A stretch of DNA of 64,000 bases from a virus (IMGVR_UViG_3300026519_000009:1-64000); one strand, 5' to 3'. Shown: positions 799-63,262, counted from the first letter of the stretch. Numbers and translations: made by a program. Notes: generated by a model not told the origin, from the sequence alone.

Positions 799-861
799 CA
801 AATTGACAAAATATCACCACTAAATCAGCTTGCTGATTTAGTGGTGATCGATTTTCTTCAA
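799..861 (+). mobile_element. Palindromic mini-element (IS200/IS605-derived, PATE-like) copy
   Basis: TTTAT|CAAATTG...; perfect stem ATCACCACTAAATCAGC-tt-GCTGATTTAGTGGTGAT; ends TTCAA. Confidence 0.8.
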
Positions 862-892
862 TATTTAGTGGGCGTAGGAAAACGTAAGTGAA

Positions 893-1084
893 TCAACCCA
901 ACAGCAATTGATCTCCACTTTCCACAATAGGAACGATTATTGCAACTTTTTGTTCGGCTTCGGTAAGACTCATCATTGCCATTTCAGCGCTTATCGTTGT
1001 TGGAAAACGTGCGGATACTTCCATACCATTGATTTTAATAACATAAAACACCTTATTCGTACTATCGGTTATCAGATTATCCAT
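893..1084 (-). CDS. Hypothetical phage protein
   Basis: ORF with GAGGG RBS before MDNLITD. Confidence 0.55.
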   Translation of the reverse strand: MDNLITDSTNKVFYVIKINGMEVSARFPTTISAEMAMMSLTEAEQKVAIIVPIVESGDQLLLG

Positions 1085-1116
1085 TAACTTCCCTCTCGTT
1101 ATATAATATATTAATG

Positions 1117-1476
1117 TCAGCAACCACTACCATCAGTATATTTATTCTTATTATCTTGACTTGTAATAGTTTCATTAAGAAGTACATCAGGTGTATTGGC
1201 ATCTACATCACCATTATCAAAACATTTTTGTGTTTCATATGGTCCTGCAATCGTTCGATAATGTTCTAGCTGTACGCATGTCAATAATCCAATAGCACTA
1301 TTTATGTCCGCATAATTTGTATTATAACAAGTTCGTAGTAATTTTGTTATAATGTAGTTTAAATTACCTTCCATTTGATTTTCATCGTCATCTAACTCTA
1401 ATTGAACAAGCGCCGAGCGTACCTTTTCAATTACTGGGTCTAAAACTTCCCGTTTATGTTGTTTAATATATGGCAT
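1117..1476 (-). CDS. Conserved-looking phage hypothetical protein (MPYIKQ... type)
   Basis: 119-aa ORF with GGAGGT RBS. Confidence 0.65.
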   Translation of the reverse strand: MPYIKQHKREVLDPVIEKVRSALVQLELDDDENQMEGNLNYIITKLLRTCYNTNYADINSAIGLLTCVQLEHYRTIAGPYETQKCFDNGDVDANTPDVLLNETITSQDNKNKYTDGSGC

Positions 1477-1540
1477 TAAATCACCTCCTATTTATGAAAT
1501 TTATATTGCGTAACATATTCTACGTCAGCGCTTGTTCGAT

Positions 1541-1720
1541 TCAAGGTAATAGTACCATAGCTTGTATTACAATCTCAATATTATCTGGTGCTATTTTTAT
1601 TTTATGTAGTGTACCATGTAATTTCCATCCATCCGCTAGTAAATTATTTACTTCAGTAGATACGTTACTAGGAATCCCCTCTACAATATGATATTTGCTA
1701 ATTCGTTTATTGTGTTTCAT
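1541..1720 (-). CDS. Small DUF1737-like protein (59 aa, below ORF-track cutoff)
   Basis: Manual translation MKHNKRISKYHIVEG...VNNLLADGWKLHG...QAMVLLP. Confidence 0.5.
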   Translation of the reverse strand: MKHNKRISKYHIVEGIPSNVSTEVNNLLADGWKLHGTLHKIKIAPDNIEIVIQAMVLLP

Positions 1721-1796
1721 GTGATATAGTCACTTATGCTATAATGTTCAATTTCACCTAACTTGGCACGCTTACACGATGTAGTTTTGTCGCAAT

Positions 1797-1859
1797 CCAT
1801 AGTATTTGCCGGAATGCCACTTCCAAATCAGCGAGCTGATTTGGAAGTGGTCGCTTCAC
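1797..1859 (+). mobile_element. Palindromic mini-element copy; supplies the TGA stop of the adjacent minus-strand gene
   Basis: CCACTTCCAAATCAGC-ga-GCTGATTTGGAAGTGG-TCGCTTCAC; left end degenerate. Confidence 0.8.
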
Positions 1860-2131
1860 TTTAATTCACGCCATATCATCATTTTCTTCGTGTTTTTATC
1901 CTTACGTACAAACACCTGTCCTGAATTTGAATATATATCATGGCGTTTTATTTGTCGAAGCACATTTGTTGACACGTTATGTACACGCGCAAATTCATTA
2001 AAATCAACAGCGATATGTGGGATTTTTTTAAAAGCTAATGCAATTTTATTCCCTTTCGGTCCACGTTTTTTAAGTTTCTTTTTTTGTTTTGTTGCTGTTT
2101 GTGGGGGCGAATGTGGTAATGTGTCTTTCAT
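1856..2131 (-). CDS. Basic hypothetical protein, possibly DNA-binding
   Basis: GGAGGA RBS before MKDTL; Lys/Arg-rich. Confidence 0.55.
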   Translation of the reverse strand: MKDTLPHSPPQTATKQKKKLKKRGPKGNKIALAFKKIPHIAVDFNEFARVHNVSTNVLRQIKRHDIYSNSGQVFVRKDKNTKKMMIWRELK

Positions 2132-2656: not shown

Positions 2657-3038
2657 ATGTTCCACTGGACTTACACAGAAATCTTTGGTAAACTAACGCG
2701 GTATTGCGAAGATCAAGTTGTTATTGTTCGCAAATTACCGTCTAGTTACGCGAGCCAACAACGATGCACCAAAGGCGGCTGGGTACAAAAAACCAATAGA
2801 AATGGTAAAACATTTGAATGCCAGTCATGCGGTCACGCCGCAGATGCGTATATCAATGCCGCCATTAATATCGGAAGCGAATTGTCAACGTTGTCAAATC
2901 GCAAGTTACTAGACAACAATAATGGATTTTATTGGAATCTAGTAGATCAGGAGCAGTATATAGTCCCTGATTACCAAAAAACATTGAATAATATATTGTA
3001 ATGGTTTACAATATATGTATATTCAAAATGTAACTATC
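2657..3038 (+). pseudogene. tnpB: tnpB 3' remnant (second family) with downstream end region
   Basis: Degenerate zinc ribbon and RuvC-III: NRNGKTFECQSCGHAADAYINAAINI; 3' region repeated at 57889-57999. Confidence 0.7.
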
Positions 3039-3062: not shown

Positions 3063-3723
3063 CCAAGTGGCCGGATAGACACCATATTAAATACACAATG
3101 ATTAAGTGAATTTAGTTCTTGACTTGACATTTAACTATGGTATCATAACTATATGAAAAGAGCAATCATTCCTGATGATAAAGCCATGAAGACTTTAATA
3201 ATCCGTGTCAAGGACAACAAGCGCAAGGTTTTAAAGCAAAAGGCGTTTGAAGTCAATCAGGTGTGGAATGATGCAAATCATAAATGGTCAACCAAGATAG
3301 TAAAAGAAAACGAATTAATAGCGATTGGTAATGTTAGTGCGTCTAAGTTAGCAAAAACCAAGATGGCTAAATCCGTATTAGACGCAGGTTGGTATCAACT
3401 AAAGAACATGCTCGATTATAAATCGAAAGCGATGCGATGCATGTTTGTTGAAGTCAACGAATCGTACACCACCCAAACTTGTTCGACGTGTCAAAAAATA
3501 ACTGACACGAGTCCGAAAGGTAGATCAGGCCTTGGAATAAGAGAATGGACGTGTTCCGGGTGTGGAACAAGGCATGATCGTGATATCAATGCAGCAACGA
3601 ACATTCTCCGCTTGGGAAGTCAAGCGCTGGTAGCAGGAGTCTGTGGAAACACAGAAGACACAATGGGTGACCATTGTGCGAATCCACCACCAAATCTTTG
3701 ATTTGGTGGTGGATTCGCTTCAA
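3063..3723 (+). mobile_element. Internally deleted IS200/IS605 (IS1341-like) element with truncated tnpB
   Basis: TTTAT|CCAAG left end; promoter TTGACT-N16-TATCAT; ORF 3153-3701; right hairpin followed by TTCAA. Confidence 0.85.
3153..3701 (+). pseudogene. tnpB: tnpB with in-frame internal deletion (RuvC-I missing)
   Basis: N-terminal KTLIIRVKD fused to AKSVLDAGW...VNESYTTQTCSTC...WTCSGCG..HDRDINAATNI. Confidence 0.85.
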
Positions 3724-3754: not shown

Positions 3755-4630
3755 ATGAAAATATTAATGGTAGGCATTACCGCTATTTCACTACTATTGC
3801 TGGCGAATATAGCAGTTGGAAGTAGTACCTCCGGTTGGGGAACAAAACATGTGCATAACTCGAAATGTAATCACACAATTAACAAGAATAGAAACGTTAA
3901 TAAAAACATGAATGTTAACAAGAATAGAAACGTTAATAAAAACATGAATGTTAACAAGAATAGAAACGTTAATAAAAACATGAATGTTAACAAGAATAGA
4001 AACGTTAATAAAAACATGAATGTTAACAAGAATAGAAATATTAATCGAAGTAATAACAATCTGAGGACAACAAGCGTTGCCAAAATTAATGGTTCAGGTA
4101 ATAGTAAAAATTACAACAAAACTACCAGTTCGGCAAATGCAACGGGTGGTTCGGCAAATGCAACGGGTGGTTCCGCACAACAAAAACAAAGCCAATCACA
4201 ATCGTTGAATAATTCAGGAAATTCGTCGGCGACAGCGGTGGGTGGTGATGTTTTAGCCAACGGTGCAATTCAGATATCTGACAATTCTAGCACAGTATAT
4301 AAGGCAGCGCGGATTCCTGTAAATACGGCATGGGCAGCCCCATTGGTGGCAAGCGATGATACTTGCATGGGCAGCACTAGTGCTGGTGGACAAGGCATTA
4401 CTATTGGGTTAAGTTTTAGCACAACTTGGAGTGATTCCGACTGTGTTGTTCGTAAGGATGCACGTTTTTTGCACAATACACATCGTCCAGACATTGCGTT
4501 ATCATTAATGTGTTCTAAGAAATCCGTTAAGGAAGCGGTTAGGAGGGCAGGTAGCGACGCTGAAAAACGTAGTTGTGGTCTATTAGAACCGGCACCAACA
4601 GTAACCGAAGAATATGGCGAAAGGGGTTGA
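3755..4630 (+). CDS. Secreted low-complexity Asn-rich repeat protein
   Basis: GGAG RBS; signal peptide; (NKNRNVNKNMNV)n; Cys-containing C-terminal domain. Confidence 0.7.
   Translation: MKILMVGITAISLLLLANIAVGSSTSGWGTKHVHNSKCNHTINKNRNVNKNMNVNKNRNVNKNMNVNKNRNVNKNMNVNKNRNVNKNMNVNKNRNINRSNNNLRTTSVAKINGSGNSKNYNKTTSSANATGGSANATGGSAQQKQSQSQSLNNSGNSSATAVGGDVLANGAIQISDNSSTVYKAARIPVNTAWAAPLVASDDTCMGSTSAGGQGITIGLSFSTTWSDSDCVVRKDARFLHNTHRPDIALSLMCSKKSVKEAVRRAGSDAEKRSCGLLEPAPTVTEEYGERG
3881..4038 (+). repeat. 36-bp tandem repeat, about 4.4 copies
   Basis: AACAAGAATAGAAACGTTAATAAAAACATGAATGTT, perfect copies. Confidence 0.95.
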
Positions 4631-5419: not shown

Positions 5420-6499
5420 ATGCGGTTGATAGAAGATATAAAACTTGACTACACTGATGTATTATTTGTACCAAAGCGATCTACATTAACATCCCGAAAG
5501 CATGTTGTTCTTGAGCGGAAACAACAGTTTCTACATACTAGTAACAAATATAATGGCATTGGAATCATTAGTGCAAATATGGATCATACTGGTACCTTTG
5601 AAATGGCACGGGCACTAAGTGCCCTAAACGTATCAACCGCGTTACATAAGCACTATGCCGCCGATGAATTAATTACATTCTTTTCGGATAACAATGAACA
5701 AAATCATATAATTTTCTATTCAATGGGGATTAGTAAAACCGATTACGATAAATTCAAGCAGGTGTATAAACACCATAAAACGAATATTTCAGCGGTTTGT
5801 ATTGATGTTGCTAATGGATATACCACACAGTTTGAACAATTCATTACTAAAATTCGTAATGAATTCCCCAAATTAACAATAATGGCCGGAAGTGTTGTTA
5901 CGCCGGAAATGACAGAACAACTCTTATTAGCTGGTGCTGATATTATTCGCGTTGGTATTGGTAGTGGGAGCGTGTGTACCACACGAAAGCTTACTGGCGT
6001 AGGGTATCCACAATTAAGTGCAGTTATTGAATGTGCCGATGCAGCACACGGGCTAAAAGGTCATATATGCGCGGATGGTGGTTGCACTATGCCCGGTGAC
6101 ATATCAAAAGCGTTTGGTGCGGGTGCTGATTTCGTAATGTTAGGTGGTCTATTAGCAGGACACAAAGAATGTAATGGTGAATTAGTGTATCCCTCCAAAA
6201 ATATATCCGAGGGGGGTCCATTAATAGAAGAAGAGCCCACGCATATGCAATTCTATGGGATGAGTTCTGCGCTCGCCATGGAAAAATATGCGGGCGGTGT
6301 TGCTGATTATAGGGCTGCGGAGGGCAAGTCAGTATTGGTGCCCTATCGTGGTGCGGTAACGGACACGATGCACACGATTCTTGGTGGAATACGCAGCACA
6401 TGTACCTATGTCGGGGCTGTTTCATTAAAAGAATTAAGCAAACGCACTACTTTTATTCGTGTGAATCAATCTCACAACACCATATTTGGGGATGAATAA
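5420..6499 (+). CDS. guaC: GMP reductase
   Basis: ANMDHTG, DVANGY, GIGSGSVCTTR, ECADAAHGL, ADGGC, FYGMSS motifs. Confidence 0.95.
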   Translation: MRLIEDIKLDYTDVLFVPKRSTLTSRKHVVLERKQQFLHTSNKYNGIGIISANMDHTGTFEMARALSALNVSTALHKHYAADELITFFSDNNEQNHIIFYSMGISKTDYDKFKQVYKHHKTNISAVCIDVANGYTTQFEQFITKIRNEFPKLTIMAGSVVTPEMTEQLLLAGADIIRVGIGSGSVCTTRKLTGVGYPQLSAVIECADAAHGLKGHICADGGCTMPGDISKAFGAGADFVMLGGLLAGHKECNGELVYPSKNISEGGPLIEEEPTHMQFYGMSSALAMEKYAGGVADYRAAEGKSVLVPYRGAVTDTMHTILGGIRSTCTYVGAVSLKELSKRTTFIRVNQSHNTIFGDE

Positions 6500-6637: not shown

Positions 6638-6696
6638 TTGAAGCAATCACCACCAATTCAGCAAGCTGAATTGGTGGTGATATTTCGGCAACTTGT
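6638..6696 (-). mobile_element. Palindromic mini-element copy
   Basis: TTGAAGC-AATCACCACCAATTCAGC-aa-GCTGAATTGGTGGTGAT-ATTTCGGCAACTTG; a further decayed copy may lie at about 6552-6614. Confidence 0.8.
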
Positions 6697-7077: not shown

Positions 7078-7332
7078 TTATTTTTCTTTTAAAGATAAAT
7101 TCTGCTTTGCACGAATCAACTGTTGTTTTAATTTTTCAATTCTAAGCTTTTCGGATTTATTTGGATCATCAGTCTGTTTAATCGCCCGCTGGTCATCAAT
7201 GCCCTGCGCCAGTTGTTTCTTACGATAGCGTTCAGGATCACGGGCAGCTTGTTTAACATCCGCCATTGCTTGCGTTGGATCATCACTAACGGTGAGTTCA
7301 GTCAAATATTGAATAAATGTTAAATGTTTCAT
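7078..7332 (-). CDS. Small protein with CTS-like N-terminus
   Basis: MKHLTFIQYLTE; start overlaps upstream stop (ATGA). Confidence 0.55.
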   Translation of the reverse strand: MKHLTFIQYLTELTVSDDPTQAMADVKQAARDPERYRKKQLAQGIDDQRAIKQTDDPNKSEKLRIEKLKQQLIRAKQNLSLKEK

Positions 7333-8366
7333 GAATTATGACCAAGGTTACGAATAATCAACGCGGACAATTCTTCTAATGAAATGTCGGCGTTGTCCAA
7401 ATCTTCATCTTCCTGATTTGTTTTATATGGAATACTATCGCCAACATTGATAGTGTTCTCCATTGAAAGCTTAACTTCAGCATTTTGTGCCTGCTCATGT
7501 TGATATCGCGCCAATTTAGCCATTTGCTTTGCTTCTTTTTCTTGGTCTTTAGCTTCTTTTTCAGCGGCTTTCATATCATATAATTGTTCATCCTTACGAA
7601 TATTAAAACTAGCCAAACGTGCGCCAGCTTCCGCCTCTTTTGCACGGGCTTCCGCTTGTTTTGCATCCGCTTCCGCACGGCGGGCATCCGCATCCGCCTT
7701 CATCATGTCAATAACTTGGTTTAACGCGGATTTTGCGGCATCATCGCCCGCATCGCCCGCATCGCCCGCATCAACACTATCCGCAGTGGAAACATCGGAT
7801 AAATCGCTACCATCATCCGGTTCACCGCCATCGCTTGGTGGTGTTTCCATACCACCATCTACCTCTTGTTCTTCTTCTACATCACCTTCTATATTTGGCC
7901 ATTCAACATCCACAATATCAAACTTATCCTTTAACTTAAATAATACTTCCGCAATTTCAATTGATGTATTAGAATCATCATTATCACTATCTTCGCCCGC
8001 CAGCATTGCGGCCAGTTGTTTTTCAAATTGCTCGGCATCCGCATCTGCCACATATACCTTGATCATATTACCATCTTCATCCTCAAGACCAAAAGCAACG
8101 GTGTCCCGTTCCTTTGCGTTTCGCTTGGAGGCACTTTCTATTTTAGACATAACATCGGACGAATCAAACTTGTTAGTATCTTTTGCTATTCCTAGCCCTT
8201 CGCCAATATTAATCACCCTGCGCAGCATTTTTGTATTTTTCTTTTTTCGTTTTTTTGCATCAACCAAACCACCTCCAAGTAGTGATCCTGGATACGCAGC
8301 AATACTACCAGCACTGGTGCTACCAGCCGAAGCCATTTCTTTAATAAGGGTATGTAATAATGACAT
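7329..8366 (-). CDS. Acidic coiled-coil protein (possible head internal/scaffold protein)
   Basis: 345 aa; LIKE-MASAG N-terminus; D/E-rich; ATAAATA upstream. Confidence 0.55.
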   Translation of the reverse strand: MSLLHTLIKEMASAGSTSAGSIAAYPGSLLGGGLVDAKKRKKKNTKMLRRVINIGEGLGIAKDTNKFDSSDVMSKIESASKRNAKERDTVAFGLEDEDGNMIKVYVADADAEQFEKQLAAMLAGEDSDNDDSNTSIEIAEVLFKLKDKFDIVDVEWPNIEGDVEEEQEVDGGMETPPSDGGEPDDGSDLSDVSTADSVDAGDAGDAGDDAAKSALNQVIDMMKADADARRAEADAKQAEARAKEAEAGARLASFNIRKDEQLYDMKAAEKEAKDQEKEAKQMAKLARYQHEQAQNAEVKLSMENTINVGDSIPYKTNQEDEDLDNADISLEELSALIIRNLGHNS

Positions 8367-8401: not shown

Positions 8402-8829
8402 CTAAAATGCAGAAATACCACCGCCAAATTCAGCGAGCTGAATTTGGCGGTGGATTCGCATAATGATCACACATTATGCTGTCGGCAACTGTTGGCAACC
8501 TTCCGTGTTCCGTTGGTAGCCCATAGACACCTCCTACGATCGTTTCGCTTCACAAGTGGAGAATGTTCATCGCTGCATTGACAACGCGCTCATGTATTGT
8601 TCCACGCTTGATTGACAACAAACGCCTTTTGAATCAATACTTTGCGTTTGTTGTCATTGACACGAAACTTTAATGTCTTCATGACTTTATTGTCGGAATG
8701 AATGCACTTTTTCACATAAACGGTGTACCATAGTTAAATGTCAGATCAAGAACTAAATTCACTATGGTGCCTATCCAACCACTTCCAAATCAGCAAGATG
8801 AATTTGGAAGTGGTATTCCGGTAACTTGG
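8402..8829 (-). mobile_element. Decayed tnpB element with a left end on both sides, between divergent genes
   Basis: Reverse-complement similarity to 3063-3723; hairpins at about 8418-8453 and 8779-8813; both ends abut ATAAATA motifs. Confidence 0.85.
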
Positions 8830-8859: not shown

Positions 8860-9240
8860 ATGGCGCACCAAACTAATCTTTACCGAGGCTACTCATCATT
8901 TAACTTTCAAAGCGATAAAACCTTTGCATTGCGCGATGTTGAACTCGTTCAGACGGAATTACTGGCCCATATATTTACCACCAAGGGGTCACGGGTCATG
9001 ATGCCAAATTTTGGCAGCAATATCCCAACAATGGCATTTGAACCATTAGACGAAATGATAGTTGATGAAGTTTATACCGAATTATTAAATATTTTTGACT
9101 ATGATCCAAGAGTTGAAGTGGTTTCATTGCGTGTTATCCCGGACTTCGACAATAATTCAATAGAGGCACGTGCTAGATTACGATATATCGAATTAGATAC
9201 TGTCGATGACTTCGACCTAAATATAGACTTTGAAAATTAA
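8860..9240 (+). CDS. Baseplate wedge subunit, GPW/gp25 family
   Basis: IFTTKGSRVMMPNFGSNIP..AFEPLD...YDPRV motif. Confidence 0.9.
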   Translation: MAHQTNLYRGYSSFNFQSDKTFALRDVELVQTELLAHIFTTKGSRVMMPNFGSNIPTMAFEPLDEMIVDEVYTELLNIFDYDPRVEVVSLRVIPDFDNNSIEARARLRYIELDTVDDFDLNIDFEN

Positions 9241-9267: not shown

Positions 9268-12200
9268 ATGGTTAATGAAATTTCAAGAGCTGAAGCATGG
9301 ACACGCGCACATGAGGTGTTCACACGTGTAAATTTTAATGCATTTGACTATAATACAATTAAGGAAAGCCTACTGGACTATATGAAGCTATATTTTCCAG
9401 AAGACTTTAATTCGTATATCGAATCATCCGAATTTATTGCAATTCTTGAACTATTTGCATATGTTGGTGAATTATTAGCATACCGGTTGGATTTAAACGC
9501 ACATGAAAACTTCATTACCACGGCTGAACGCAAAGAATCAATTTTACGATTAGCTAAATTAATATCATATAGTGCTTCGCGTAATGTTCCAGCGCGGGGG
9601 TTAGTAAAAATAACATCTATACAAACAACTGAACAGATTTTTGACGCACAAGGTAGGAACTTAGCTAATACAAATTTAATATGGAATGACTTAAACAACC
9701 CAGACTGGAAAGAACAGTTTCTTACGGTAATGAATCGTGTATTAGAACAACCATTCGGTACGGTTACACCAAATGAGCGGGTACAAATAGAAGATGTATT
9801 GTTTGAATTATACACATGGAATAATCAGCCATTATCTGGAAATGGGATAACCACGTTTAAGTATTCAATTCCTGCTGCGGGCACCACATTTCCACTTGAA
9901 TTAGTACCGGTGGCACTTACCGCAGCATCACCAATAGAAAAGCGACCTGAACGAAATGGGAAATTCTCATTATTATATGGTGCTGATGGTCTTGGTGATG
10001 GTTCCGATACAACCGGGTTTTTCCTGTACACCAAACAAGGAACATTGCAAGTTCGTGAAGCTAATTTCGACGGTCTCACCACAAACCAAACATTTGATGT
10101 AGCTACGAATAATATTAATGAAACTGACGTTTGGTTAAACAATGTAGACCCTAATACCCGTGAAATCATTAGCACAAATCCCTTTGCCCAACAATTACCT
10201 CACCTTGATAGTAATACCGGTCGGTTTGGAGAATGGTCAACCGTTAATGCGTCAAATACACAAAATATCTTCTTTAATATTGTCAATAAACGCCAACAGT
10301 TTGAAATTGAAACATTAGATAACGACCAAATTAGATTAATATTCGGGGATGGTGAATTTTCGGATATTCCAAACGGTGCTTTTGATATTTGGTATAGAAT
10401 TTCTGCAAATAGTAATAGTGCAATTCCACAAACGTCTGCGAATGAGCTCACCGCAAGCTTTACGTATTTAGATATTAGCAACACAACACAAACGTTTACC
10501 TTTACCTTTGCATTAATCAATTCGCTACAGAATGCATCGGTCTCCGAAGATATTGAACATATTAGACGTGTTGCGCCTTCGGTGTACTACACACAGGATA
10601 GAATGGTAAATGGTAGGGACTATAACTCGTTTATGCTACAAGACCCATCTATATTAAAATTACGTGCGGTAAACCGAACATTTTCGGGTGACTCAAAATA
10701 TATAGCGTGGCATGACCCAAAAGAATATTACGAAGATGTAAAAATATTCGGGGAGGATATGGCACTGTATTGGATAAATAATGTTGTGGAGAATGGTGGA
10801 CTAATTACCTCCAATACCGCGCTTACTTCATCTGAAGTTATTTCAAACCTAATAGAACCATTACTATGTAGTTCTGACTTATACAATATAATGATTGGTT
10901 TATTTCAAAACGCATCAATGCAATTAGTGGAACATTGTACGTTTACACCAGCCGAAGTGTCAGTAATTCAATCTGCTTTAGATTTTGCTGCCACATCTTC
11001 CAATCCACAAGTAGACTTATATTTTTCGGCTACTGGTGATGAATGGACGGTGGGCGAAAGCATATCATACACCGATTCTGTATTTTTGATAAGAATAGAA
11101 GCAATTTTCACCGCTAGTAGCTTATCTGGATGGACTATACGTTGGGCGACCAGTAGAATGAATGTTCAAAGTCAAACTACTAGATTTAGAAATACAAATA
11201 CAACCTCACGAATCGTCAACTTTGATACACTAAATTCAAATGATGATAATATTTTAATACTTAATGCAAACGCAAATGGCAGTGAAAATGCGTTATTGGG
11301 TTCAAATAAAAAATATAATGTATTAGGTCAGGAACTCGTAGAACAAAATCTACCAAATGCTGGATTACCGGATGATAATCGTCTTTCAGTGATACCGACC
11401 GATACGGATGATGATGGTATTCCGAATGACATAGAACAAACGGATTTATTAAACGCAATATACACCACCGTCATAGCAGTTGCTGGTACGGGAATATTAT
11501 TTGACTTTCAATCACTATCCAATCCTGCACCCGGCACACAGCTTCCTAATGCAAATGCAATGTATTTTATGGAAAATACACATTTGGAAAGTGTTTCGGT
11601 TAAGGTTAATAATACAACCATTACTACGTGGGTACCCGGTCCAGTTATTCCAGGGACAAACGAAATTCATTCAATAATAATCACATCACCGCTTTCCGTA
11701 AGCGATATTCTCGAAATATCAACTAAACGATTTGTTTATTTTCATCGCCCAACCATTACCGATCAATGGGTACCTGTTGTCGATAATAGCGCAAATCGTG
11801 CGTTATGGTTTGCAGATTCATTGAACCTTTTATATAAACGCGAAGAAGGACGATTTCCGCTAAACTTCGCATGGTTCTATACAACGCCTAGGTTTCATCT
11901 CGTAGACCCCGCCGCTAGTAACATAATTGATATGTTTATAATCACAACGTCATATTATCAAGAACTTACGCGATATCTAAATAATAGCACTACTATTATG
12001 CCAACATTGCCAACACCACTTGACTTACGAACGTCATATGCTGGATTGTTACAAAATGCAATGATTTCGGACACAGTTATTTTACATCCTGGAACATTTA
12101 AAATACTATTCGGCGAGCGTGCAATACCTGAACTTCGTGGTGTATTTAAAGTTCTACGACCGGATAATACATCATTGACTGATAATGAGGTCAAAGTCAG

Positions 12201-12465
12201 AATAGTAGATACCATTAAACGGTTTTTTAATATAACGGATTGGAATTTTGGAAGCACGTTTTACTTAACAGAATTACTAGCCGCCATACATGTTGATTTA
12301 GGAGCGGAGATTCGATCAATTGTATTAGTCCCCACATTCACGACAAATCAATTTGGCGACTTGTTTCAAGTTCAAGCACGCGAAGATGAAATATTTATAG
12401 CAGATATTAATACAACCGATGTTGATATCATACAATCGTTCACCGCTGAAAATATAAGACAATAA
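9268..12465 (+). CDS. Baseplate wedge protein, gp6/baseplate-J-like
   Basis: FDYNTIKESL...ENFITTAERKESILRLAKLISY; FGDGEF; QDRMVNGRDY; directly follows gp25. Confidence 0.85.
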   Translation: MVNEISRAEAWTRAHEVFTRVNFNAFDYNTIKESLLDYMKLYFPEDFNSYIESSEFIAILELFAYVGELLAYRLDLNAHENFITTAERKESILRLAKLISYSASRNVPARGLVKITSIQTTEQIFDAQGRNLANTNLIWNDLNNPDWKEQFLTVMNRVLEQPFGTVTPNERVQIEDVLFELYTWNNQPLSGNGITTFKYSIPAAGTTFPLELVPVALTAASPIEKRPERNGKFSLLYGADGLGDGSDTTGFFLYTKQGTLQVREANFDGLTTNQTFDVATNNINETDVWLNNVDPNTREIISTNPFAQQLPHLDSNTGRFGEWSTVNASNTQNIFFNIVNKRQQFEIETLDNDQIRLIFGDGEFSDIPNGAFDIWYRISANSNSAIPQTSANELTASFTYLDISNTTQTFTFTFALINSLQNASVSEDIEHIRRVAPSVYYTQDRMVNGRDYNSFMLQDPSILKLRAVNRTFSGDSKYIAWHDPKEYYEDVKIFGEDMALYWINNVVENGGLITSNTALTSSEVISNLIEPLLCSSDLYNIMIGLFQNASMQLVEHCTFTPAEVSVIQSALDFAATSSNPQVDLYFSATGDEWTVGESISYTDSVFLIRIEAIFTASSLSGWTIRWATSRMNVQSQTTRFRNTNTTSRIVNFDTLNSNDDNILILNANANGSENALLGSNKKYNVLGQELVEQNLPNAGLPDDNRLSVIPTDTDDDGIPNDIEQTDLLNAIYTTVIAVAGTGILFDFQSLSNPAPGTQLPNANAMYFMENTHLESVSVKVNNTTITTWVPGPVIPGTNEIHSIIITSPLSVSDILEISTKRFVYFHRPTITDQWVPVVDNSANRALWFADSLNLLYKREEGRFPLNFAWFYTTPRFHLVDPAASNIIDMFIITTSYYQELTRYLNNSTTIMPTLPTPLDLRTSYAGLLQNAMISDTVILHPGTFKILFGERAIPELRGVFKVLRPDNTSLTDNEVKVRIVDTIKRFFNITDWNFGSTFYLTELLAAIHVDLGAEIRSIVLVPTFTTNQFGDLFQVQAREDEIFIADINTTDVDIIQSFTAENIRQ

Positions 12466-12485: not shown

Positions 12486-12553
12486 CTAAATTAACGAAAT
12501 GTCACTTCCAAATTCCGCTGGGCGGCCAACGGTGAGGGGATTTAGCAAATCGG
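12486..12553. mobile_element. Degenerate palindromic mini-element with two left ends
   Basis: TTTAT|CTAAATT...CACTTCCAAATT...GCAAATCGG|ATAAATA. Confidence 0.55.
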
Positions 12554-12586
12554 ATAAATAATTAAATAATTGGAGAGCAACTTACC

Positions 12587-45775: not shown

Positions 45776-45849
45776 TGACATTATATATCAATATCGCTTC
45801 AATCTTTTTTTTTATGTATGATAAATATACTAAACTAGGGAATATAATT

Positions 45850-47349: not shown

Positions 47350-47410
47350 CCAAGTTGCCTGAATACTACTTCCAAAGTGGGCTAGCTGAATTTGGAAGCG
47401 GTCGCTTCAA
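47350..47410 (+). mobile_element. Mini-element supplying the TGA stop of the Nudix gene
   Basis: GTTAT|CCAAGTTGCC...GTCGCTTCAA. Confidence 0.85.
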
Positions 47411-47838
47411 TTAACTATGTTTTTTGTGATCCATCGCGTAGCAGCCTCTACAATAGGACGATGCAATAGTCTACCTTCCTCATAAAATTCGGAAGGTGTC
47501 ATCCATCGCGTTGATGCAATTCCGGGTTCAGGATCACCAAACAACAATGGATCATTTACTTCTGCCACAAAAACAGTAGTTCGTCCAAGAAAAATCCCAA
47601 GTGAATAAATGTCACCAATTATATTGGGTACAAACAGACCAACTTCTTCTTGGGCTTCGCGAATAGCAGCATCAATCGCCGATTCATTGTTTTCAATTTT
47701 ACCCTTACATAATTGATAAGTATTACCCCCGAAAGTATGCGAGGCTGGACGTTGAAATAACATTTTAAATGTATTTGAATCTTCACTTAAATGATAGGGT
47801 ATCAATCCAGCTCTATATATTTTTTTTTTATTTCTCAT
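47407..47838 (-). CDS. Nudix hydrolase
   Basis: Nudix box GKIENNESAIDAAIREAQEEVGL. Confidence 0.9.
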   Translation of the reverse strand: MRNKKKIYRAGLIPYHLSEDSNTFKMLFQRPASHTFGGNTYQLCKGKIENNESAIDAAIREAQEEVGLFVPNIIGDIYSLGIFLGRTTVFVAEVNDPLLFGDPEPGIASTRWMTPSEFYEEGRLLHRPIVEAATRWITKNIVN

Positions 47839-47873: not shown

Positions 47874-47937
47874 CCAATTTGCCAAAATACCATCACCCAA
47901 TTTTGCAAGCAGAATTTGGTGATGGCATTCGCGTCAA
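47874..47937 (+). mobile_element. Palindromic mini-element copy
   Basis: TTTAT|CCAATTTGCC..CCATCACC...GGTGATGG..CGCGTCAA. Confidence 0.8.
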
Positions 47938-49756: not shown

Positions 49757-50190
49757 GATATCCCCTTTCGAATATTGCGTAAGTATTCAATACTAGCTTC
49801 GCATGTTGTTGGTGTCTTATTGGCAAGAATTTCATTTACCCTTTTATCGGTATTCACGCGGCTATCCCGTAGTGTATTTTTCAAACTTTTAATATTGTTT
49901 GCAAGGTTTTTTGATATCATTCGCCATTTATCAACTTCATTATTTCTATCAACAATACTGTCGGCAAGTGTATCATTCCCTTTTTTACAAATATCAATCG
50001 CATTATCCGCAGCAGCAAGTCTCTTCGTCAAGCTAGGTATGGTTTCAGCGCCAAAAAATATTCGGGCTTCAAACACATTTTGATATACTATTATAGCCAT
50101 CATACCACCAATGGCAATTGTTTTCCAGTTTGTTATGATAAACGGAACTATACTTTTAAAATTTAAAAGTTTTAATAAGAATAACGGCAT
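49744..50190 (-). CDS. Inner-membrane spanin (Rz-like)
   Basis: N-terminal TM, coiled coil, C-terminal PTTCEASIEYL. Confidence 0.7.
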   Translation of the reverse strand: MPLFLLKLLNFKSIVPFIITNWKTIAIGGMMAIIVYQNVFEARIFFGAETIPSLTKRLAAADNAIDICKKGNDTLADSIVDRNNEVDKWRMISKNLANNIKSLKNTLRDSRVNTDKRVNEILANKTPTTCEASIEYLRNIRKGISWEK

Positions 50191-50240
50191 AACAGATTCT
50201 CCACTTGATATAATTATATATCAAGTGGAGAATCTGTTAT
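50189..50240 (-). promoter_or_regulatory. Perfect 24-bp stem-loop masking the spanin RBS and start
   Basis: ATAACAGATTCTCCACTTGATATA-atta-TATATCAAGTGGAGAATCTGTTAT. Confidence 0.75.
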
Positions 50241-50249
50241 TTTTTGAAT

Positions 50250-50324
50250 TTACTGTTGGCAACCCTAAATTTCCGAAATGCCACTTCCAAATTTGGTTTG
50301 CTGAATTGGAAGTGGTCGCGTCAT
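50250..50324 (+). mobile_element. Mini-element copy with a 10-bp insert at its left junction; supplies a TGA stop
   Basis: CCACTTCCAA...TTGGAAGTGG-TCGCGTCAT. Confidence 0.75.
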
Positions 50325-50524
50325 TTTCCTAGTTTTTGGTGGATATTCATAAGGTCTGATGAATTTTTTCGTGTAGAATGATATGTTCTATCCAGCTTTA
50401 CACCAGTTTTTTGAAGTTGCTTCTGCAACTGACGCATTACTTTTTCTATTTTCCTAATTTGATCAGCCTGTTTTGATATCAGTTCCGATTGTAGTTTTAG
50501 TTGTTGTTCGATATTAATTTTCAC
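50321..50524 (-). CDS. Small coiled-coil protein
   Basis: 67-aa ORF. Confidence 0.55.
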   Translation of the reverse strand: MKINIEQQLKLQSELISKQADQIRKIEKVMRQLQKQLQKTGVKLDRTYHSTRKNSSDLMNIHQKLGK

Positions 50525-51337: not shown

Positions 51338-51592
51338 TTTTGCCTCCAGTAATGATATTATATTAAAGCGTTATCCATCAATATCAGGAAGTTCAGCATT
51401 CTGTTTCACCAATTCGTCAAACACAATAGAAATCCGATTAGATAATGTAGTTTCCAAGGCGGATAATGACGTAAGTTCTGATAGTCGAACGGTTGCTTCA
51501 ATTAAGCTATCCATGATATATTCTCTCTAATATTATTGAAACATGACAATATCATGCGATAACGAATAAATCAAGCATTTTATCCAATTTGA

Positions 51593-51766
51593 CTAAATTT
51601 CGGATGGCTTTCCAAATATTCGTTCAACTGCATGTAAGAACTCCTTTTCGGGGTCTAATGCCCGTGCGAGCATCTCTTCTTGTTCGGGTGTTAATGGTTG
51701 GGTTTCGGTAAATCCCATGTCGGCTAAAACGGTGATAATCGCTGAATCTTGGTTTTCTGTCTTCAT
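51593..51766 (-). CDS. Small acidic protein (57 aa, not in ORF track)
   Basis: MKTENQDSAII...ERIFGKPSEI; GGATAAATA 5 nt upstream. Confidence 0.45.
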   Translation of the reverse strand: MKTENQDSAIITVLADMGFTETQPLTPEQEEMLARALDPEKEFLHAVERIFGKPSEI

Positions 51767-51778
51767 GTGTATATTTAT

Positions 51779-51842
51779 CCAAGTTGTCGGAATACCACCA
51801 AATTAGCAAGCTGAATTTTGAAGTGGTATTCTGGCAACTTGG
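51779..51842. mobile_element. Mini-element with two left ends
   Basis: TTTAT|CCAAGTTGTCGGAATACCAC...GTGGTATTCTGGCAACTTGG|ATAAA. Confidence 0.85.
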
Positions 51843-51906: not shown

Positions 51907-52173
51907 CTAGTCGGCGGAGGGAGAATCTTCTGCGTCAGCAGAAGATTCTCCCTCCGCACTAAGCTCTGCACGTACTTTATTGATAATTTGTTGCGAAAGT
52001 GTTTCTTTTGCCGCAATATATCGAGTCAATTCATCCCGTACCACCACTTCCTGCCGTTGCCAATCATTATACATTTCGACCAATCCTTGAATTTCTTCAC
52101 TCAGACTATCAACCGCATATGGCTTTTCATCAATTGTAAGTACCTTAATATCCACTACTTTTTGCATCTTCAA
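51907..52173 (-). CDS. Small acidic hypothetical protein
   Basis: GGAG RBS; terminator downstream. Confidence 0.6.
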   Translation of the reverse strand: MKMQKVVDIKVLTIDEKPYAVDSLSEEIQGLVEMYNDWQRQEVVVRDELTRYIAAKETLSQQIINKVRAELSAEGESSADAEDSPSAD

Positions 52174-53591: not shown

Positions 53592-53650
53592 CCAAGTTGC
53601 TGGAATACCACTTCCAAATCGGCGATCTGATTTGAAACCGACCACTTCAA
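53592..53650 (+). mobile_element. Palindromic mini-element copy
   Basis: TTTAT|CCAAGTTGCTGGAATACCACTTCCAAATC...CACTTCAA. Confidence 0.8.
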
Positions 53651-55596: not shown

Positions 55597-55663
55597 CCAA
55601 GTTGCAGCAATACCACTTCCGATTTCAGCTTGCCGATTTGGAAATGGTATTGCTACAATTTGG
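55597..55663. mobile_element. Mini-element with two left ends
   Basis: TTTAT|CCAAGTTGCAGCAATACCA...TGGTATTGCTACAATTTGG. Confidence 0.8.
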
Positions 55664-57177: not shown

Positions 57178-57519
57178 TTGAAGTGACCACCATCAAATCA
57201 GCGAGCTGTGTTTGGTGGTGGATTCGCACAACGGTCGCCCATTGTGTTTTCTGCATTTCCACAGACCCCTGCTAGTAGCGCTTGGTTTCCCAAGCTGAGA
57301 ATGTTCGTTGCTACATTTACATTGCAATCATGCATTGTTTCACACCCGGAGCATGTACATTCTCTTATTCCAAGACCTGAACTACCTTACTGATAATAAC
57401 ATAGTTAAATGTCAAGTCAAGAATTAAATTCACTTAATCATTGTGTGTTTAATATGTTGCCTGTCCAACCACCATCAAATCAGCACGATGATTTGATGGT
57501 GGTTGGACAGGCAACTTGG
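57178..57519 (-). mobile_element. Deleted IS200/IS605 element retaining promoter region, tnpB 3' end and both hairpins
   Basis: Reverse-complement similarity to 3063-3723; TTGAA at 57178; AACTTGG|ATAAA at 57519. Confidence 0.88.
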
Positions 57520-57880
57520 ATAAATATTCAATAACAGCCTCTTCGTCTATTGTTAGTGATCCACTTGCATTGGCGCGGCGCAACGTAGTTTCAAAGGTCA
57601 TTATCATTTCTTTTGAGTTTATATATTCTAATATGATTTCACACGCGGCGCGTGTGAAATCATATTGTGAATTGTCCTCATCATGTTTGTAGTCAATTGC
57701 CAACGCCGCCATAAACATGATATTTTGTACCACTGGCACCGTGGTTGGCATTAAAGTGAACCATCCAGGATCATTTTTAATAAAATTGGTGTATAAAATT
57801 TTATCATCATCCGTTAATGGCACGCAGCTTGACATTTGTTTAACAAATCGTTCTTCATATGTTTTTTGCAATGCAGTCAT
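57449..57880 (-). CDS. Hypothetical protein with element-derived C-terminal extension
   Basis: Reads through the left end (EYL|SKLP...); excision gives EYLF*. Confidence 0.6.
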   Translation of the reverse strand: MTALQKTYEERFVKQMSSCVPLTDDDKILYTNFIKNDPGWFTLMPTTVPVVQNIMFMAALAIDYKHDEDNSQYDFTRAACEIILEYINSKEMIMTFETTLRRANASGSLTIDEEAVIEYLSKLPVQPPSNHRADLMVVGQATY

Positions 57881-57999: not shown

Positions 58000-58059
58000 C
58001 CAAGTTGCCGAAATACCACTACCAAATCAGCAAGCTGAATTTGGAAATGGTCGCTTCAA
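58000..58059 (+). mobile_element. Palindromic mini-element copy (near consensus)
   Basis: ATTAT|CCAAGTTGCCGAAATACCAC...TGGTCGCTTCAA. Confidence 0.88.
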
Positions 58060-59370: not shown

Positions 59371-60088
59371 CCAAGTTGCCGAAATACCACTTCCAAATTC
59401 ACGTGGTCGGTGGTATCTTTCGGTTCAAGTACTTGTTGACAAACAAGTATCAACTGGCACCGGACATATAGGAATTGACTTGGGGTTAAAGACCATTGCT
59501 ACGTGTTCAAATGGCGAAATATTAGAACGTAAGGAATATTATCGTAAATCCGAAAGCAAGTTGGGCATTGCCCAACTTGCAAAAAAGAAACGCCAAGTAA
59601 AAACAATTCATGCGAAAATCAAGAACCAACGGATGGACACAAATCATAAATGGTCAACCAAGATAGTAAAAGAAAAACGAATTAATAGCGATTGGTAATG
59701 TTAGTGCGTCTAAATTAGCAAAGACTAAGATGGCTAAATCCGTATTAGACGCAGGTTGGTATCAACTAAAGAACATGCTCGATTATAAATCGAAAGCGAT
59801 GCGATGCATGTTTGTTGAAGTCAACGAATCGTACACCACCCAGACCTGTTCGTCGTGTCAGGAAATAACTGAAACGAGTCCGAAAGGTAGGACAGGTCTT
59901 GGAATAAGGGAATGGACGTGTTCCGGGTGTGGCACATTGCATGATCGTCATATCAATGCAGCAACGAACATTCTCCGCTTGGGAAGTCAAGCGCTCGATG
60001 GAGGAGTCTGTGGAAACACAGAAGACACAATGGGTGACCATTATGCGAATCCACTTCCAAATCAAAGATTTGGAAGTGGTCGCTTCAA
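59371..60088 (+). mobile_element. tnpB: IS200/IS605 element remnant with the largest tnpB fragment (5' deleted, frameshifted)
   Basis: TTTAT|CCAAGTTGCC; IGIDLGLKT RuvC-I; extra A near 59678; zinc ribbon; right hairpin + TTCAA. Confidence 0.9.
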
Positions 60089-60591: not shown

Positions 60592-61153
60592 AAGTTTAAC
60601 ATTCGTGTAATATCCATAATACAGAAGTGATGATCAAGCCCCCAATTTGGGCACTATTGTTGCACATCACCAACAATTCGATGTACGTTGCCCAATTTAT
60701 CGAAAGACGTTGAGGTTAGTCCATTGTTAGGTAGATTTTTATATTTACCAGAAGGTAGAAAACAAACATGCTGTAGTGTTCCAGTTTTCAAACGCTATGG
60801 TGGTAGTTCCCCACTAGGCCCGCGAAACCCCCCGTGACCGGCCTGGATAGATATATATCTATCCGAACGGAGGGGGGCCAGCTCTCATGGTTTTAAATGG
60901 TTAAAAAAAATAATTTAATAATGAATGTTTATTAGTTCTTTCTGCCTTGCGAGGCTTTATCCGCAAGGCAGAAGAATAATTGATATTACATTTTCGCGCC
61001 TTGGTGCGAAGATTATAGATAATCCATTATTACGTTATTATATTATTATGGAAATTGAAAATGTAGGCAATAATTGCAAAAAATGTGGTTTTGTTGTTGT
61101 CATGTCCCATTCATAACATTGGCACCAGACAAGTGCTTTCACGCAAGCGCTTC

Positions 61154-61168
61154 TTGAACGCAACTTGG
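61154..61168 (-). repeat. Minimal element scar (both ends, hairpin lost)
   Basis: TTGAA-CG-CAACTTGG|ATAAA. Confidence 0.5.
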
Positions 61169-61260
61169 ATAAAAAATACAAGTCGTCAATAGTGACGAAT
61201 AAATATATTCTTAAAAAATAATCCATTGATGATTTATAAAAAACATGATACAATCATAGG

Positions 61261-62859
61261 ATGAATAATAAATCAAAAATATTTGAATCATGGCCCACGC
61301 CAGAATTCACACCTCGTACAAATCAAATAATTGCATTGGAATGGATTGAAAAACAAACCGCAAAATATTTGATTTTGGAAGCACCGGTTGGTAGTGGAAA
61401 ATCACATACAGCACTTACATTTGCAACCTCTATATCAACACATCTAAAACACTCATTTGTATTAACACCACAGATAATTTTACAACAGCAATATGAAGTT
61501 GACTTTAAAAAAAATGGTAGTGCATTTTTAGCATCATTGCGTGGTAAATCAAATTATAAGTGTATTAATAAAAAAACATCATGTAATGTTGGTTCTTTAG
61601 TCAAACCAAAATGTGCTGTCTGCCCCTATATTAAAGCAAAACAACGGGCATTATACTCCAAAAATACGGTTCTTAATTACAAGTTGGCACTAACTACCTT
61701 CACGTATACAGATACGTTTGCAAAACGAAAGCTATTAATAATGGACGAAGCACATACCCTTGAGCGACATTTAGTTGATTTTGATTCCGTTGATATCAAA
61801 TCTTTTATATGCGAGAAATACAATATTAAATTTAAAGTTAATACTAATATTAAATCAGCAAAAGAATGGGTAACAAAAGAATATTTACCTAACATACAAG
61901 ACGCATTAAATACACTTGAAGAAGATAGTGAATATTTATATGAAAAAACAGGAGCAGAAATAACAAAAAAGGAATTAAAATTATTATCAGAAATTGATGA
62001 ATTAAGCGCACATGTGAATGATGTTTTGGAATTGTCAATACGAAATGTTAAGTATTTAGAAAAACACTTCGTACTAGTACACGATAAAACGATGATTCAA
62101 TTTAAACGTATTACAGGCGCGTATTCATTTAAAAAAATATTTGAACCACAAGCTGAACGTTTTTTATTCATGTCCTCAACCATATTAAATAAAAACCAAT
62201 TCTGTGCAGACTTAGGTATTGATGAAAAAGATACCGCGTTTTTATCACTTGAAAGTGACTTCCCTGTTGAAAACAGGCCAATATATTATATGCCCATTTT
62301 AAAAATGAATGCTGCTTGGAACAAACCAGAACAAGCAAATGGTAGAAAACAAATGATTACCAGAATATGCGAACTGCTTGATATTCATAAAACCGAGTCG
62401 GGAATAATCCACACAGCAAATTATCAAATAGCAATATGGTTAGTACAGGAACTTTCGAAGTTAAAGTCACACGACATTTATCATCATAATCCAAAAACCA
62501 AGCATAATCGAAATACCACAATTGATATGTTTATAGAGTCAACCGTACCATCTATTCTTATAAGCCCATCATGTACCGAAGGACTTGACCTAAAAGATGA
62601 TTTGTCACGGTTCGCAATGATTGTTAAGACACCGTTTGGATACTTAGGTGACCAGTGGATAAAGAAACGGTTAGATATGTCGGCTGAATGGTACAGGCGC
62701 AGAGCTATGACCGATATCATACAAGCTGGTGGACGAATTGTGAGAAGTTCAAATGATAGTGGCACAGTATATATTCTGGACGGTAGCTTTGGATACCTAT
62801 ATTCGCAGTCATCTTCCATGATACCAAAATGGTGGAAAGATTCATTAGTGTTTATGTAG
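61261..62859 (+). CDS. DinG/XPD-like SF2 helicase
   Basis: APVGSGKS, Cys cluster, DEAH, MSST, EGLDL, QAGGRIVRS. Confidence 0.9.
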   Translation: MNNKSKIFESWPTPEFTPRTNQIIALEWIEKQTAKYLILEAPVGSGKSHTALTFATSISTHLKHSFVLTPQIILQQQYEVDFKKNGSAFLASLRGKSNYKCINKKTSCNVGSLVKPKCAVCPYIKAKQRALYSKNTVLNYKLALTTFTYTDTFAKRKLLIMDEAHTLERHLVDFDSVDIKSFICEKYNIKFKVNTNIKSAKEWVTKEYLPNIQDALNTLEEDSEYLYEKTGAEITKKELKLLSEIDELSAHVNDVLELSIRNVKYLEKHFVLVHDKTMIQFKRITGAYSFKKIFEPQAERFLFMSSTILNKNQFCADLGIDEKDTAFLSLESDFPVENRPIYYMPILKMNAAWNKPEQANGRKQMITRICELLDIHKTESGIIHTANYQIAIWLVQELSKLKSHDIYHHNPKTKHNRNTTIDMFIESTVPSILISPSCTEGLDLKDDLSRFAMIVKTPFGYLGDQWIKKRLDMSAEWYRRRAMTDIIQAGGRIVRSSNDSGTVYILDGSFGYLYSQSSSMIPKWWKDSLVFM

Positions 62860-62861
62860 TG

Positions 62862-62883
62862 TTGAATAATTCAGGCAACTTGG
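62862..62883 (-). repeat. Minimal element scar
   Basis: TTGAA-TAATTCA-GGCAACTTGG|ATAAA. Confidence 0.55.
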
Positions 62884-62898
62884 ATAAAGGAAAAAAAA

Positions 62899-63204
62899 AT
62901 GCGAAGCATATTAAAATTAATGTTACAGATTGTCGCGTATGCAGTAATAGTGATGTTAACAGTATATTGGATATCGGCAGAACAACTAAACTACATTCTT
63001 ATTGAAATACCAACATTAATATTTGATACGTTGGTTAAGTTAATGCCGACTAATGGCCACGAATCAACAACAGTTGACGTTGCGTTAATGGGGATATACA
63101 CATTCCTTGCACTAACCTTACCCGTTCTTTGGTGGTTATTTGTATTTTTTACACCATTTATGCTATTACGTAATGTTTCCAACAAATATATTAATGGTTG
63201 TTGA
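62899..63204 (+). CDS. Membrane protein; stop codon supplied by element
   Basis: Two hydrophobic segments; TGA lies in TTGAAGCG. Confidence 0.6.
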   Translation: MRSILKLMLQIVAYAVIVMLTVYWISAEQLNYILIEIPTLIFDTLVKLMPTNGHESTTVDVALMGIYTFLALTLPVLWWLFVFFTPFMLLRNVSNKYINGC

Positions 63205-63262
63205 AGCGCCACACACCACCAAATCAGCAAGTTGAATTTGGTGGTGTGGTAGTGGTAACTTC
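63201..63262 (-). mobile_element. Palindromic mini-element between convergent genes
   Basis: TTGAAGCG-CCACACACCACCAAAT...ATTTGGTGGTGTGG...GGTAACTT. Confidence 0.75.

Follow-up and report, generated by a model that had tools for sequence, protein, structure and literature searches.

We show here that the first 64,000 nucleotides of the IMG/VR virus record IMGVR_UViG_3300026519_000009 (hereafter the window), which come from a T4-like jumbo phage of roughly 320–360 kb, carry one family of hairpin-bearing repeats at 28 intergenic elements, together 4,006 bp or 6.3% of bases. Very probably these repeats are palindrome-associated transposable elements (PATEs) descended from a single IS608-like member of the IS200/IS605 insertion sequences (ISs) that colonised this phage lineage. 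The 12-nt core of the hairpin, allowing at most one mismatch, is found 25 times against 0.41 expected from shuffles. A covariance model (CM) built from an alignment of 13 canonical units, and run with filters off at a cut-off of E<0.01, returned 28 distinct hairpin loci in the window, weaker matches at 62862 and 12486, and three further loci (70059, 71718 and 74902) in the 12.6 kb of contig that lie beyond the window. These loci and arm remnants were grouped into the 28 window elements, all of which lie between open reading frames (ORFs) or at ORF ends. A first-pass annotation of the window had counted about 28 copies in intergenic gaps, and each of the 28 positions that it listed carries a left arm, a hairpin and/or a right arm.

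Anatomy, ancestry and decay of the repeats

The canonical short unit (58–66 bp) lies 3' of a TTAT target that is outside the element, and consists of a 16-nt left arm, a hairpin of 15–17 bp and a right arm of 9 nt whose last bases are TCAA; the tnpA/tnpB element described below has the same hairpin and arms. Left-arm ends follow TTAT in 27 of 33 cases and TTAC in three, and right ends read TTCAA, TTCAC or GTCAA, which bears out the TTAT...TTCAA junctions originally proposed. Target duplications were absent from the flanks examined, as had been claimed, and terminal inverted repeats are not a feature, given that the left and right arms of canonical units differ. The consensus fold of the 13 aligned units is a hairpin of 15–16 bp, in whose structure 89.7% of cells are paired, 8 of 15 pairs have changed on both sides, and the covariation score was reached by none of 500 shuffles; the hairpin has been retained by compensatory changes. 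A reading as intrinsic terminators was rejected, since no T-run follows the hairpin 3' on either strand.

Five longer copies lie within the same ends, and in three to five of them we find TnpB fragments, whose domains between the element ends were confirmed with Pfam. The right end of these copies consists of the guide GAAT, a hairpin and TCAA 9 nt from the hairpin foot, while the left end carries a predicted pair of TTAT cleavage site and AATA guide; guides are 4 nt and lie directly 5' of the hairpin foot. Subterminal hairpins stand at both ends of the copies at 38912–39357 and 59371–60088, and of copies on two further contigs, G001 and G002. All the sequence-level features by which an IS608-like member of IS200/IS605 is recognized were found, and judged by its sequence the family is IS200/IS605-derived and IS608-like, in line with the origin first suggested for it: TnpB domains sit within the same ends, and the anatomy of these ends is of the IS608 type. 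The short units are moreover like PATEs in being too short to encode a transposase and in having IS605-type ends and a near-terminal palindrome with neither inverted terminal repeats nor target duplications. They do not belong with the repetitive extragenic palindromic (REP) sequences and their REP-associated tyrosine transposases (RAYTs), given that the sole Y1 gene found is inside an IS beside tnpB and that no RAYT-type gene flanked by repeats was seen, nor with classical MITEs (miniature transposable elements with inverted repeats), given the missing target duplication and the differing arms of canonical units. The label 'REP-like' given to the units at first therefore holds as an analogy only.

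The search for a Y1 HUH tnpA that the first-pass annotation recommended was successful. An exact-pattern scan of IMG/VR placed the left end on two more viral contigs of sample 3300026519, namely G001 (50.5 kb) and G002 (25 kb), on each of which the CM finds about seven units. An intact 159-aa Y1 TnpA is encoded on G001 (49915–50394, reverse strand; Pfam 136 bits), directly behind a canonical left end and a hairpin identical to that of the window, and the order that follows is tnpA, a divergent promoter-like region, the start of tnpB and the contig end. Among PDB structures this protein matches the TnpA of ISHp608 best (E=7e-22), and the two align at the HUH histidines and at the catalytic Tyr. 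Every one of the eight matches to solved structures at E≤0.001 has the name of a transposase, and none (0 of 8) carries a REP-associated name. Since window copies are 94–95% identical to the G001 element on both sides of tnpA, the longer window copies are deletion derivatives of that element. Also on G001 are genes for a topoisomerase II and for a T4-type major head protein that shares 81% identity with its counterpart in the complete related genome G005; G002 encodes a DNA polymerase 57–63% identical to that of G005, and the GC content of the window's contig, 37.1%, is the identical value in G001 and G002. Between them the three contigs carry core genes of a single clade that complement one another, and they may be parts of one genome. 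When compared with one genome for each of 185,579 species, TnpA gave a best identity of 54%, spread over several phyla with many cyanobacteria, so that no host or donor can be named; among 5.8 billion proteins it matched itself and then nothing above 64% identity, and all 108 matching records among deposited phages were below 60%.

We suggest that the autonomous form would have had the order left end, tnpA (reverse strand), promoters, tnpB and right end. Its Y1 HUH TnpA would cut the top strand 3' of the TTAT target and 3' of the element's TCAA, the cut sites being read by the 4-nt guides 5' of the subterminal hairpins (AATA left, GAAT right), and the element, in the form of a single-stranded circle, would enter TTAT sites in single-stranded DNA with no duplication of the target ('peel-and-paste'). 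Internal deletions would strip out tnpA together with most of tnpB, the nearly identical left- and right-end hairpins would then recombine, or slippage would occur between them, to yield the 'terminal-only' unit of about 60 bp, and palindrome loss would yield scars. The sizes present in the window form such a reduction series, as had been noticed earlier: TnpB-remnant forms of 342–718 bp, a 144-bp two-hairpin form, single-hairpin forms of about 60 bp and hairpin-less scars of 19–22 bp.

In particular, most of the units of about 60 bp look, from their sequences, like old terminal-only relics of recombination between left and right hairpins. Among 21 canonical units from the three contigs pairwise identity has a median of 72% and a maximum of 87%, whereas internal parts of the long copies are 94–95% alike, and we therefore read the short units as old, independently collapsed relics. 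As left- and right-end hairpins are near-identical direct repeats, a deletion between them leaves a left arm, one hairpin and a right arm; repeat-mediated core deletion yielding 52-bp terminal-only PATEs is documented in Haloquadratum (PMC3119063). The collapse of two hairpins into one, proposed from the outset, is supported by chimeric hairpins with arms from two subtypes (34094, G001:22722 and G002:6069), and the copy at 38912–39357 has both parental subtypes, one at each end. A derived hairpin variant common to window position 43722 and G001:29916, which are different loci, shows that variants were copied. Fully palindromic forms with left arms on both sides, of which there are three or four (23633, 51779, 55597 and perhaps 12486), are secondary; at 43804–43865 a single hairpin stands between two right arms. 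Palindromic and composite forms are the products expected of recombination within the palindromic hairpins of like-oriented elements, and such hairpins, as recombination substrates, could give rise both to arm–hairpin–inverted-arm forms and to rearrangement breakpoints.

The strongest alternative, which we nevertheless consider rather unlikely, is that the single-hairpin unit is itself mobile, a REP-like mini-PATE moved by TnpA in trans and multiplied as such. In its favour, the GAAT and AATA guides overlap 5' of the hairpin foot, the spacing to TTAT and TCAA is correct, and the pairing of the hairpin has been preserved by compensatory change. We know of no demonstration that a substrate with one hairpin moves. 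Mobilisation of a 52-bp terminal-only PATE was suspected in the Haloquadratum study (PMC3119063), but IS608 TnpA synapses two hairpin ends (PMC3201880), the short units are at most 87% identical (median 72%) against 94–95% for the long copies, and chimeric hairpins fit independent recombination of left- and right-end hairpins. Thus, of the idea of a collapsed unit that subsequently spread, the collapse is upheld whereas the spread of the 60-bp unit is not.

Occupancy, promoter-like boxes and rearrangements

The repeat family is lineage-specific. About 60 related viral contigs were available, including the complete 363.5-kb genome G005, which has the same gene block at 55–67% protein identity. 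In 59 relatives the loci surrounding the gp6-like gene, about 857 kb altogether, gave no CM match, nor did a further 179 kb of kin loci or G005, which also lacks a Y1 TnpA; that relatives carry the same units at all orthologous positions, the alternative envisaged in the first-pass annotation, is not what these roughly 1.0 Mb of kin loci and G005 show. Looser left-end and right-end patterns run across IMG/VR recovered the family only in the same two samples. In four kin the genes for proteins of 119 and 665 aa are only about 12–20 nt apart, an empty site, versus 113 nt with unit 37712 in the window. Moreover, occupancy differs between the window and a close relative at 88–91% nucleotide identity that is represented by two fragments, L005 and L001: L005 is about 52 nt shorter than the window at 12486, and L001 shares the unit at contig position 74902 but lacks an intact one at 71718. 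Presence/absence polymorphism of the kind expected of PATEs is therefore seen at 37712, 12486 and 71718 and in the comparison with G005. Both ends of G001 and the 3' end of L001 stop inside element copies, which suggests that the repeats cause assembly breaks and fragment short-read assemblies of this lineage.

Insertions would survive only between genes, and they are concentrated at a particular sequence. Left ends follow TATTTAT in 15 of 33 cases versus 3.9% expected (58 of 1,495 TTAT sites in the contig), a bias that is weaker on G001 and G002. The complement, ATAAATA, occurs no more than 60 nt upstream of 24 of 87 ORFs, and at 13 of these 24 the box directly adjoins the left arm of an element, which runs antisense to the gene. 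The box is outside the element, because homology to L005 before the gp25-like gene and before the giant ORF resumes exactly at it; additionally, ATAAATA is conserved at orthologous positions in kin that have no element, and in four distant kin it stands about 35 nt upstream of the 240-aa and gp25-like genes with a Shine–Dalgarno sequence between. The T4 late promoter is TATAAATA, and by analogy ATAAATA is probably the −10 element of the late promoters of this clade. A late promoter that needs only a −10-like box, as in T4, should be unharmed by an insertion at the edge of that box, and left arms lying flush with the upstream edge, antisense to the gene, would then mark insertions that survived where they did no harm. 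Insertion at such sites is perhaps also aided by the single strands that melted promoters expose.

Element ends coincide with rearrangements. Three relatives (loci L184, L186 and L192/L041) share the gene order 240-aa, 119-aa, 665-aa, gp5-like, gp25-like, gp6-like and giant ORF, whereas in the window about 25 kb separate the gp5-like gene (minus strand, with its stop at 34159) from the gp25-like gene on the other strand (plus, 8860), and both breakpoints (8829/8830 and 34153/34154) coincide with element ends. Similarly, L005 links window position 55598 to 8829 through 860 bp (L005:768–1628, encoding an IscA/HesB-like 112-aa protein and a 104-aa protein), and both breaks are at element edges. 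We think that these rearrangements are real rather than assembly errors, because ordinary reads should span diverged units of 60 bp. In an attempt to derive a single ancestral inversion from the composites, one candidate pairing, of 8415 with 43813, failed to restore the gene order of the kin.

It is improbable, in our judgement, that the phage has co-opted the units, for example as RNA hairpins between cistrons that affect processing or stability, as insulators located upstream of late promoters, or as hot spots where recombination shuffles gene modules. All units are intergenic, left arms are flush with promoter-like boxes at 13 genes, hairpin symmetry has been kept despite 28% sequence divergence, and synteny breakpoints with respect to kin coincide with element ends, as co-option would have it. 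However, kin have the same genes and boxes with no units, which are therefore not needed; occupancy varies among relatives that are 88–91% identical; the hairpin has no T-run in either orientation and no Rfam match; and survivorship at harmless sites accounts for the distribution. We would put slightly lower still a more elaborate proposal, in which the insertion preference of a phage-adapted IS is adjusted to the template strand where late promoters melt, the hairpin relics of this IS serve as hot spots of module reshuffling, and copies holding the 3' part of tnpB and the right end act as omega RNA loci for a phage-encoded TnpB that, by cutting co-infecting relatives whose sites are empty, would drive homing from phage to phage. 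That the repeats are native regulatory stem-loops of the phage (terminator or promoter cassettes) unrelated to transposons, or an assembly artefact, is scarcely credible despite their regular intergenic placement beside promoter-like boxes, since identical ends enclose TnpB remnants as well as, on G001, an intact TnpA, these ends are built like those of IS608, none of the kin examined has the units, and the diverged 60-bp units, which ordinary reads would be expected to span, are present on three independent contigs.

Several points weigh against descent from a resident IS608-like element. No Y1 tnpA is present on the window's own 76.6-kb contig (its absence from the window had been reported), G001 is placed in the same phage clade while its physical linkage to the genome of the window is not proven, and no intact tnpB was found in the 152 kb sampled. 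Present-day activity is unsupported, as pairs of short units are never more than 87% identical. The preference for the 7-nt TATTTAT is unaccounted for by 4-nt guide pairing, and the promoter role suggested for ATAAATA draws on the T4 analogy and on conservation. Finally, the empty sites predicted by the first-pass annotation are in part as expected, the gap at 37712 being empty in four kin, but a clean TTAT–flank junction was seen in no near-identical relative, and 12486 and 71718 differ beyond simple excision. Kin searches with the helicase, and with the 665-aa structural protein in metagenome contigs, returned no relative above 72% identity, and clean empty sites in near-identical genomes were therefore not obtained.

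The individual copies and their surroundings

Descent from the IS608-like element is easiest to follow in the longer copies. The 661-bp derivative at 3063–3723 (+; CM; Pfam PF07282, 80 bits), in which 184 nt match the tnpA-bearing copy at 95% identity, comprises a left arm without hairpin, the tnpA–tnpB promoter region with tnpA deleted, and a truncated tnpB; its ORF 3153–3701 has a TNB domain, and the right-end hairpin at 3678–3718 is followed by TTCAA. In the 446-bp derivative at 38912–39357 (+; CM) tnpA and most of tnpB are deleted and the right end is present; the left end, hairpin and left-end interior are 94% identical to the tnpA-bearing copy, and the left end is flush with an ATAAATA box that kin conserve. 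The 342-bp derivative at 57178–57519 (−; CM and sequence) holds the right end with its interior, a remnant of the tnpA–tnpB promoters and the left-end hairpin and arm, whereas the 718-bp derivative at 59371–60088 (+; CM; Pfam OrfB_IS605 and TNB domains) has a left end with a broken hairpin, a tnpB remnant in two frames and a right end of GAAT, hairpin and TCAA. The 428-bp composite at 8402–8829 (CM and sequence; no single orientation) is a minus-oriented tnpB-remnant element with a left arm in place of the right-end tail, so that left arms face outward on both sides, each flush with the ATAAATA box of one of two divergent genes (7329–8366 and the gp25-like 8860–9240); homology to L005 restarts exactly at the box beside it.

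The two-hairpin form of 144 bp at 43722–43865 (+; CM) has inverted right-arm copies flanking its second hairpin. Left arm, hairpin and inverted left arm make up the palindromes at 23633–23698 (CM and sequence), whose right side adjoins the ATAAATA box upstream of gene 23741, and at 51779–51842 (CM and sequence); homology to L005 breaks at the left edge of the palindromic form at 55597–55663 (CM and alignment).

Single-hairpin units with a departure from the canonical form are those at 799–861 (+; CM 62.5 bits), with a small insertion in the right arm and a left end that, preceded by TATTTAT, lies 34 nt upstream of the point where ORF 513–764 (−) starts; 1797–1859 (+; 71.1 bits), with the atypical junctions CAAT...TTCAC; 6638–6696 (−; 78.5 bits), with TTAC as target; 34094–34153 (−; 80.3 bits), whose chimeric hairpin lies at a synteny breakpoint with respect to kin, 5 nt from the gp5-like stop; and 50265–50324 (+; 69.3 bits), with a divergent left arm. 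Others lie at 27308–27367 in a convergent intergenic gap (−; 64.4 bits), at 37712–37772 in the gap of 113 nt (+; 74.2 bits), at 46855–46912 (+; 68.8 bits), 47350–47410 (+; 71.1 bits) and 47874–47937 (+; 62.6 bits), at 53592–53650, 17 nt upstream of where the gene for the DnaB-like helicase begins (+; 60 bits), and at 58000–58059 (+; 75.8 bits) and 63201–63263 (−; 60.4 bits). The complement of the TTCAA end of 47350–47410 contains the TGA stop of ORF 47407–47838 (−), and the right-end complement of 63201–63263 supplies the TGA stop of ORF 62899–63204 (+); altogether four ORF ends use a TGA in the complement of a terminal TTCAA (39354, 47407 and 50321 on the minus strand, 63204 on the plus strand). 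Since the complement of the TTAT target would offer TAA in the same register, insertion at a stop codon would alter only one base of the last sense codon.

Degenerate units occur at 12486–12558 (+; CM 17 bits), between the gp6-like gene and a 3681-aa ORF, and at 45724–45802 (+; CM 22.7 bits), where left arm, broken hairpin and right arm can be recognized. The remainder have no hairpin and were identified by sequence: a left arm joined to right-end interior at 39945–40003 (+), a left arm alone after TTTAT at 51584–51610 (+), a 19-bp scar of fused right-arm and left-arm fragments at 61154–61172 (−), and, found also by the CM at 18.6 bits, a 22-bp scar 15 nt upstream of ORF 62899 at 62862–62883 (−).

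The IMG/VR record, of which the window is the first 64 kb, is 76.6 kb long, and its CheckV completeness of 24% implies a genome of roughly 320 kb. T4-type structural proteins are encoded in the window by a gp25-like baseplate gene (8860–9240, +), a gp6-like baseplate wedge gene (9268–12465) and a gp5-like hub gene (34159–35700, −), and NrdA and a DnaB-like helicase are encoded as well. Megablast of 16 kb against deposited phages gave only an 86-nt nrdB match, so that no cultured close relative exists among them, and neither Rfam families nor tRNA genes turned up in scans of the window. The 3681-aa ORF (12587–23632, +), 3' of the gp6-like gene, is conserved in kin at 54–59% identity. The phage further encodes a homologue of ribosomal protein S21 (2351–2653, +; Pfam 55.7 bits) and, as an auxiliary gene of nucleotide metabolism, an enzyme of the IMPDH/GMP-reductase family (5420–6499, +). 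In-frame tandem repeats lie within ORFs at 3843–4058, 44026–44219 and 42511–42858, with units of 18/36 nt, 21 nt and, in a tail-fibre-like gene, 174 nt twice.

A second, different TnpB-like gene of 299 aa (30404–31303, −; HTH_OrfB_IS605, OrfB_IS605 and TNB domains) lies directly downstream of nrdA, a region that is a frequent site of homing endonucleases in T4-type phages, and a 15-bp hairpin unrelated to the repeat family lies directly upstream of it (31318–31348). A Cas12f/TnpB TNB zinc-ribbon domain (43 bits) is also found in a 114-aa ORF (2657–3001, +) with a homologue in L184. Perfect hairpins outside the family stand at 50189–50240 (24-bp stem), 51914–51957 (20 bp) and 57630–57666 (18 bp), the first preceding a T-run and hence terminator-like.

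Comparison with known systems

The closest parallel is IS608 (ISHp608 of Helicobacter pylori), in which the guide GAAT goes with a cleavage site TCAA at the right end, 10 nt away from the foot of the hairpin, and the guide AAAG with TTAC at the left end, 19 nt away (PMC5934647; PMC3201880). Shared with it are a Y1 HUH TnpA, subterminal hairpins, an accessory tnpB, insertion 3' of TTA(C/T), an identical right-end pair GAAT/TCAA, and the lack of target duplications and of inverted terminal repeats. In contrast, the left pair of the phage element is TTAT/AATA rather than TTAC/AAAG, the last position being changed on both partners; its arms are 16 and 9 nt rather than 19 and 10 nt; its TnpA is only about 40% identical; its tnpA is divergent from tnpB, as in IS605; and it is phage-resident and consists mostly of deletion derivatives.

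The short units resemble the PATEs of Haloquadratum walsbyi (HqIRS46, derivatives of ISHwa23; PMC3119063), which likewise are non-coding, have IS605-type ends and near-terminal palindromes in many diverged copies, lack inverted repeats and target duplications, and lose the core between similar palindromes to leave a single-palindrome unit of 50–60 bp. Unlike those, which reside in an archaeal chromosome and for which promoter-edge targeting was not reported (PMC3119063), the phage units reach a density of about one per 2.3 kb, or 6% of the DNA. With REP sequences, bacterial interspersed mosaic elements (BIMEs) and RAYTs they have in common the many short intergenic hairpins related to Y1 HUH enzymes, and possible effects on mRNA and recombination; the transposase, however, is IS608-like and lies within a mobile IS with tnpB, and IS-type cleavage sites stand on both sides of the unit.

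Residence of IS200/IS605 elements in T4-like phages has a precedent in ISCaje1–4 of the Campylobacter phages CP220 and CPt10, one of which has tnpA and tnpB (PMC2853527), but those elements are present as one to few full copies per genome with no miniature family, and the 75-bp repeats of their phages are tandem (PMC2853527). The MITE invasions of giant eukaryotic viruses offer miniature non-autonomous derivatives at high copy in a large viral genome, although they are mostly elements with inverted terminal repeats (PMC6004678), and in the same survey most viral transposable elements had one or two copies. Multi-copy transposable elements are usually nearly absent from phage genomes, whereas in the window roughly one IS608-type relic per 2.3 kb makes up much of the non-coding DNA. 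The phage may accordingly offer a natural system in which single-strand transposition is coupled to T4-type replication and late transcription, and an example of safe-harbour survival at promoter edges, with palindromic relics that mark, and perhaps cause, rearrangements of the genome. In sum, IS200/IS605 elements in T4-like phages (PMC2853527) and terminal-only PATEs are already known; new with respect to them are the jumbo-phage host and the density of copies, an autonomous copy that apparently resides in the phage clade, the frequent position of elements at promoter edges, and a connection with rearrangements.

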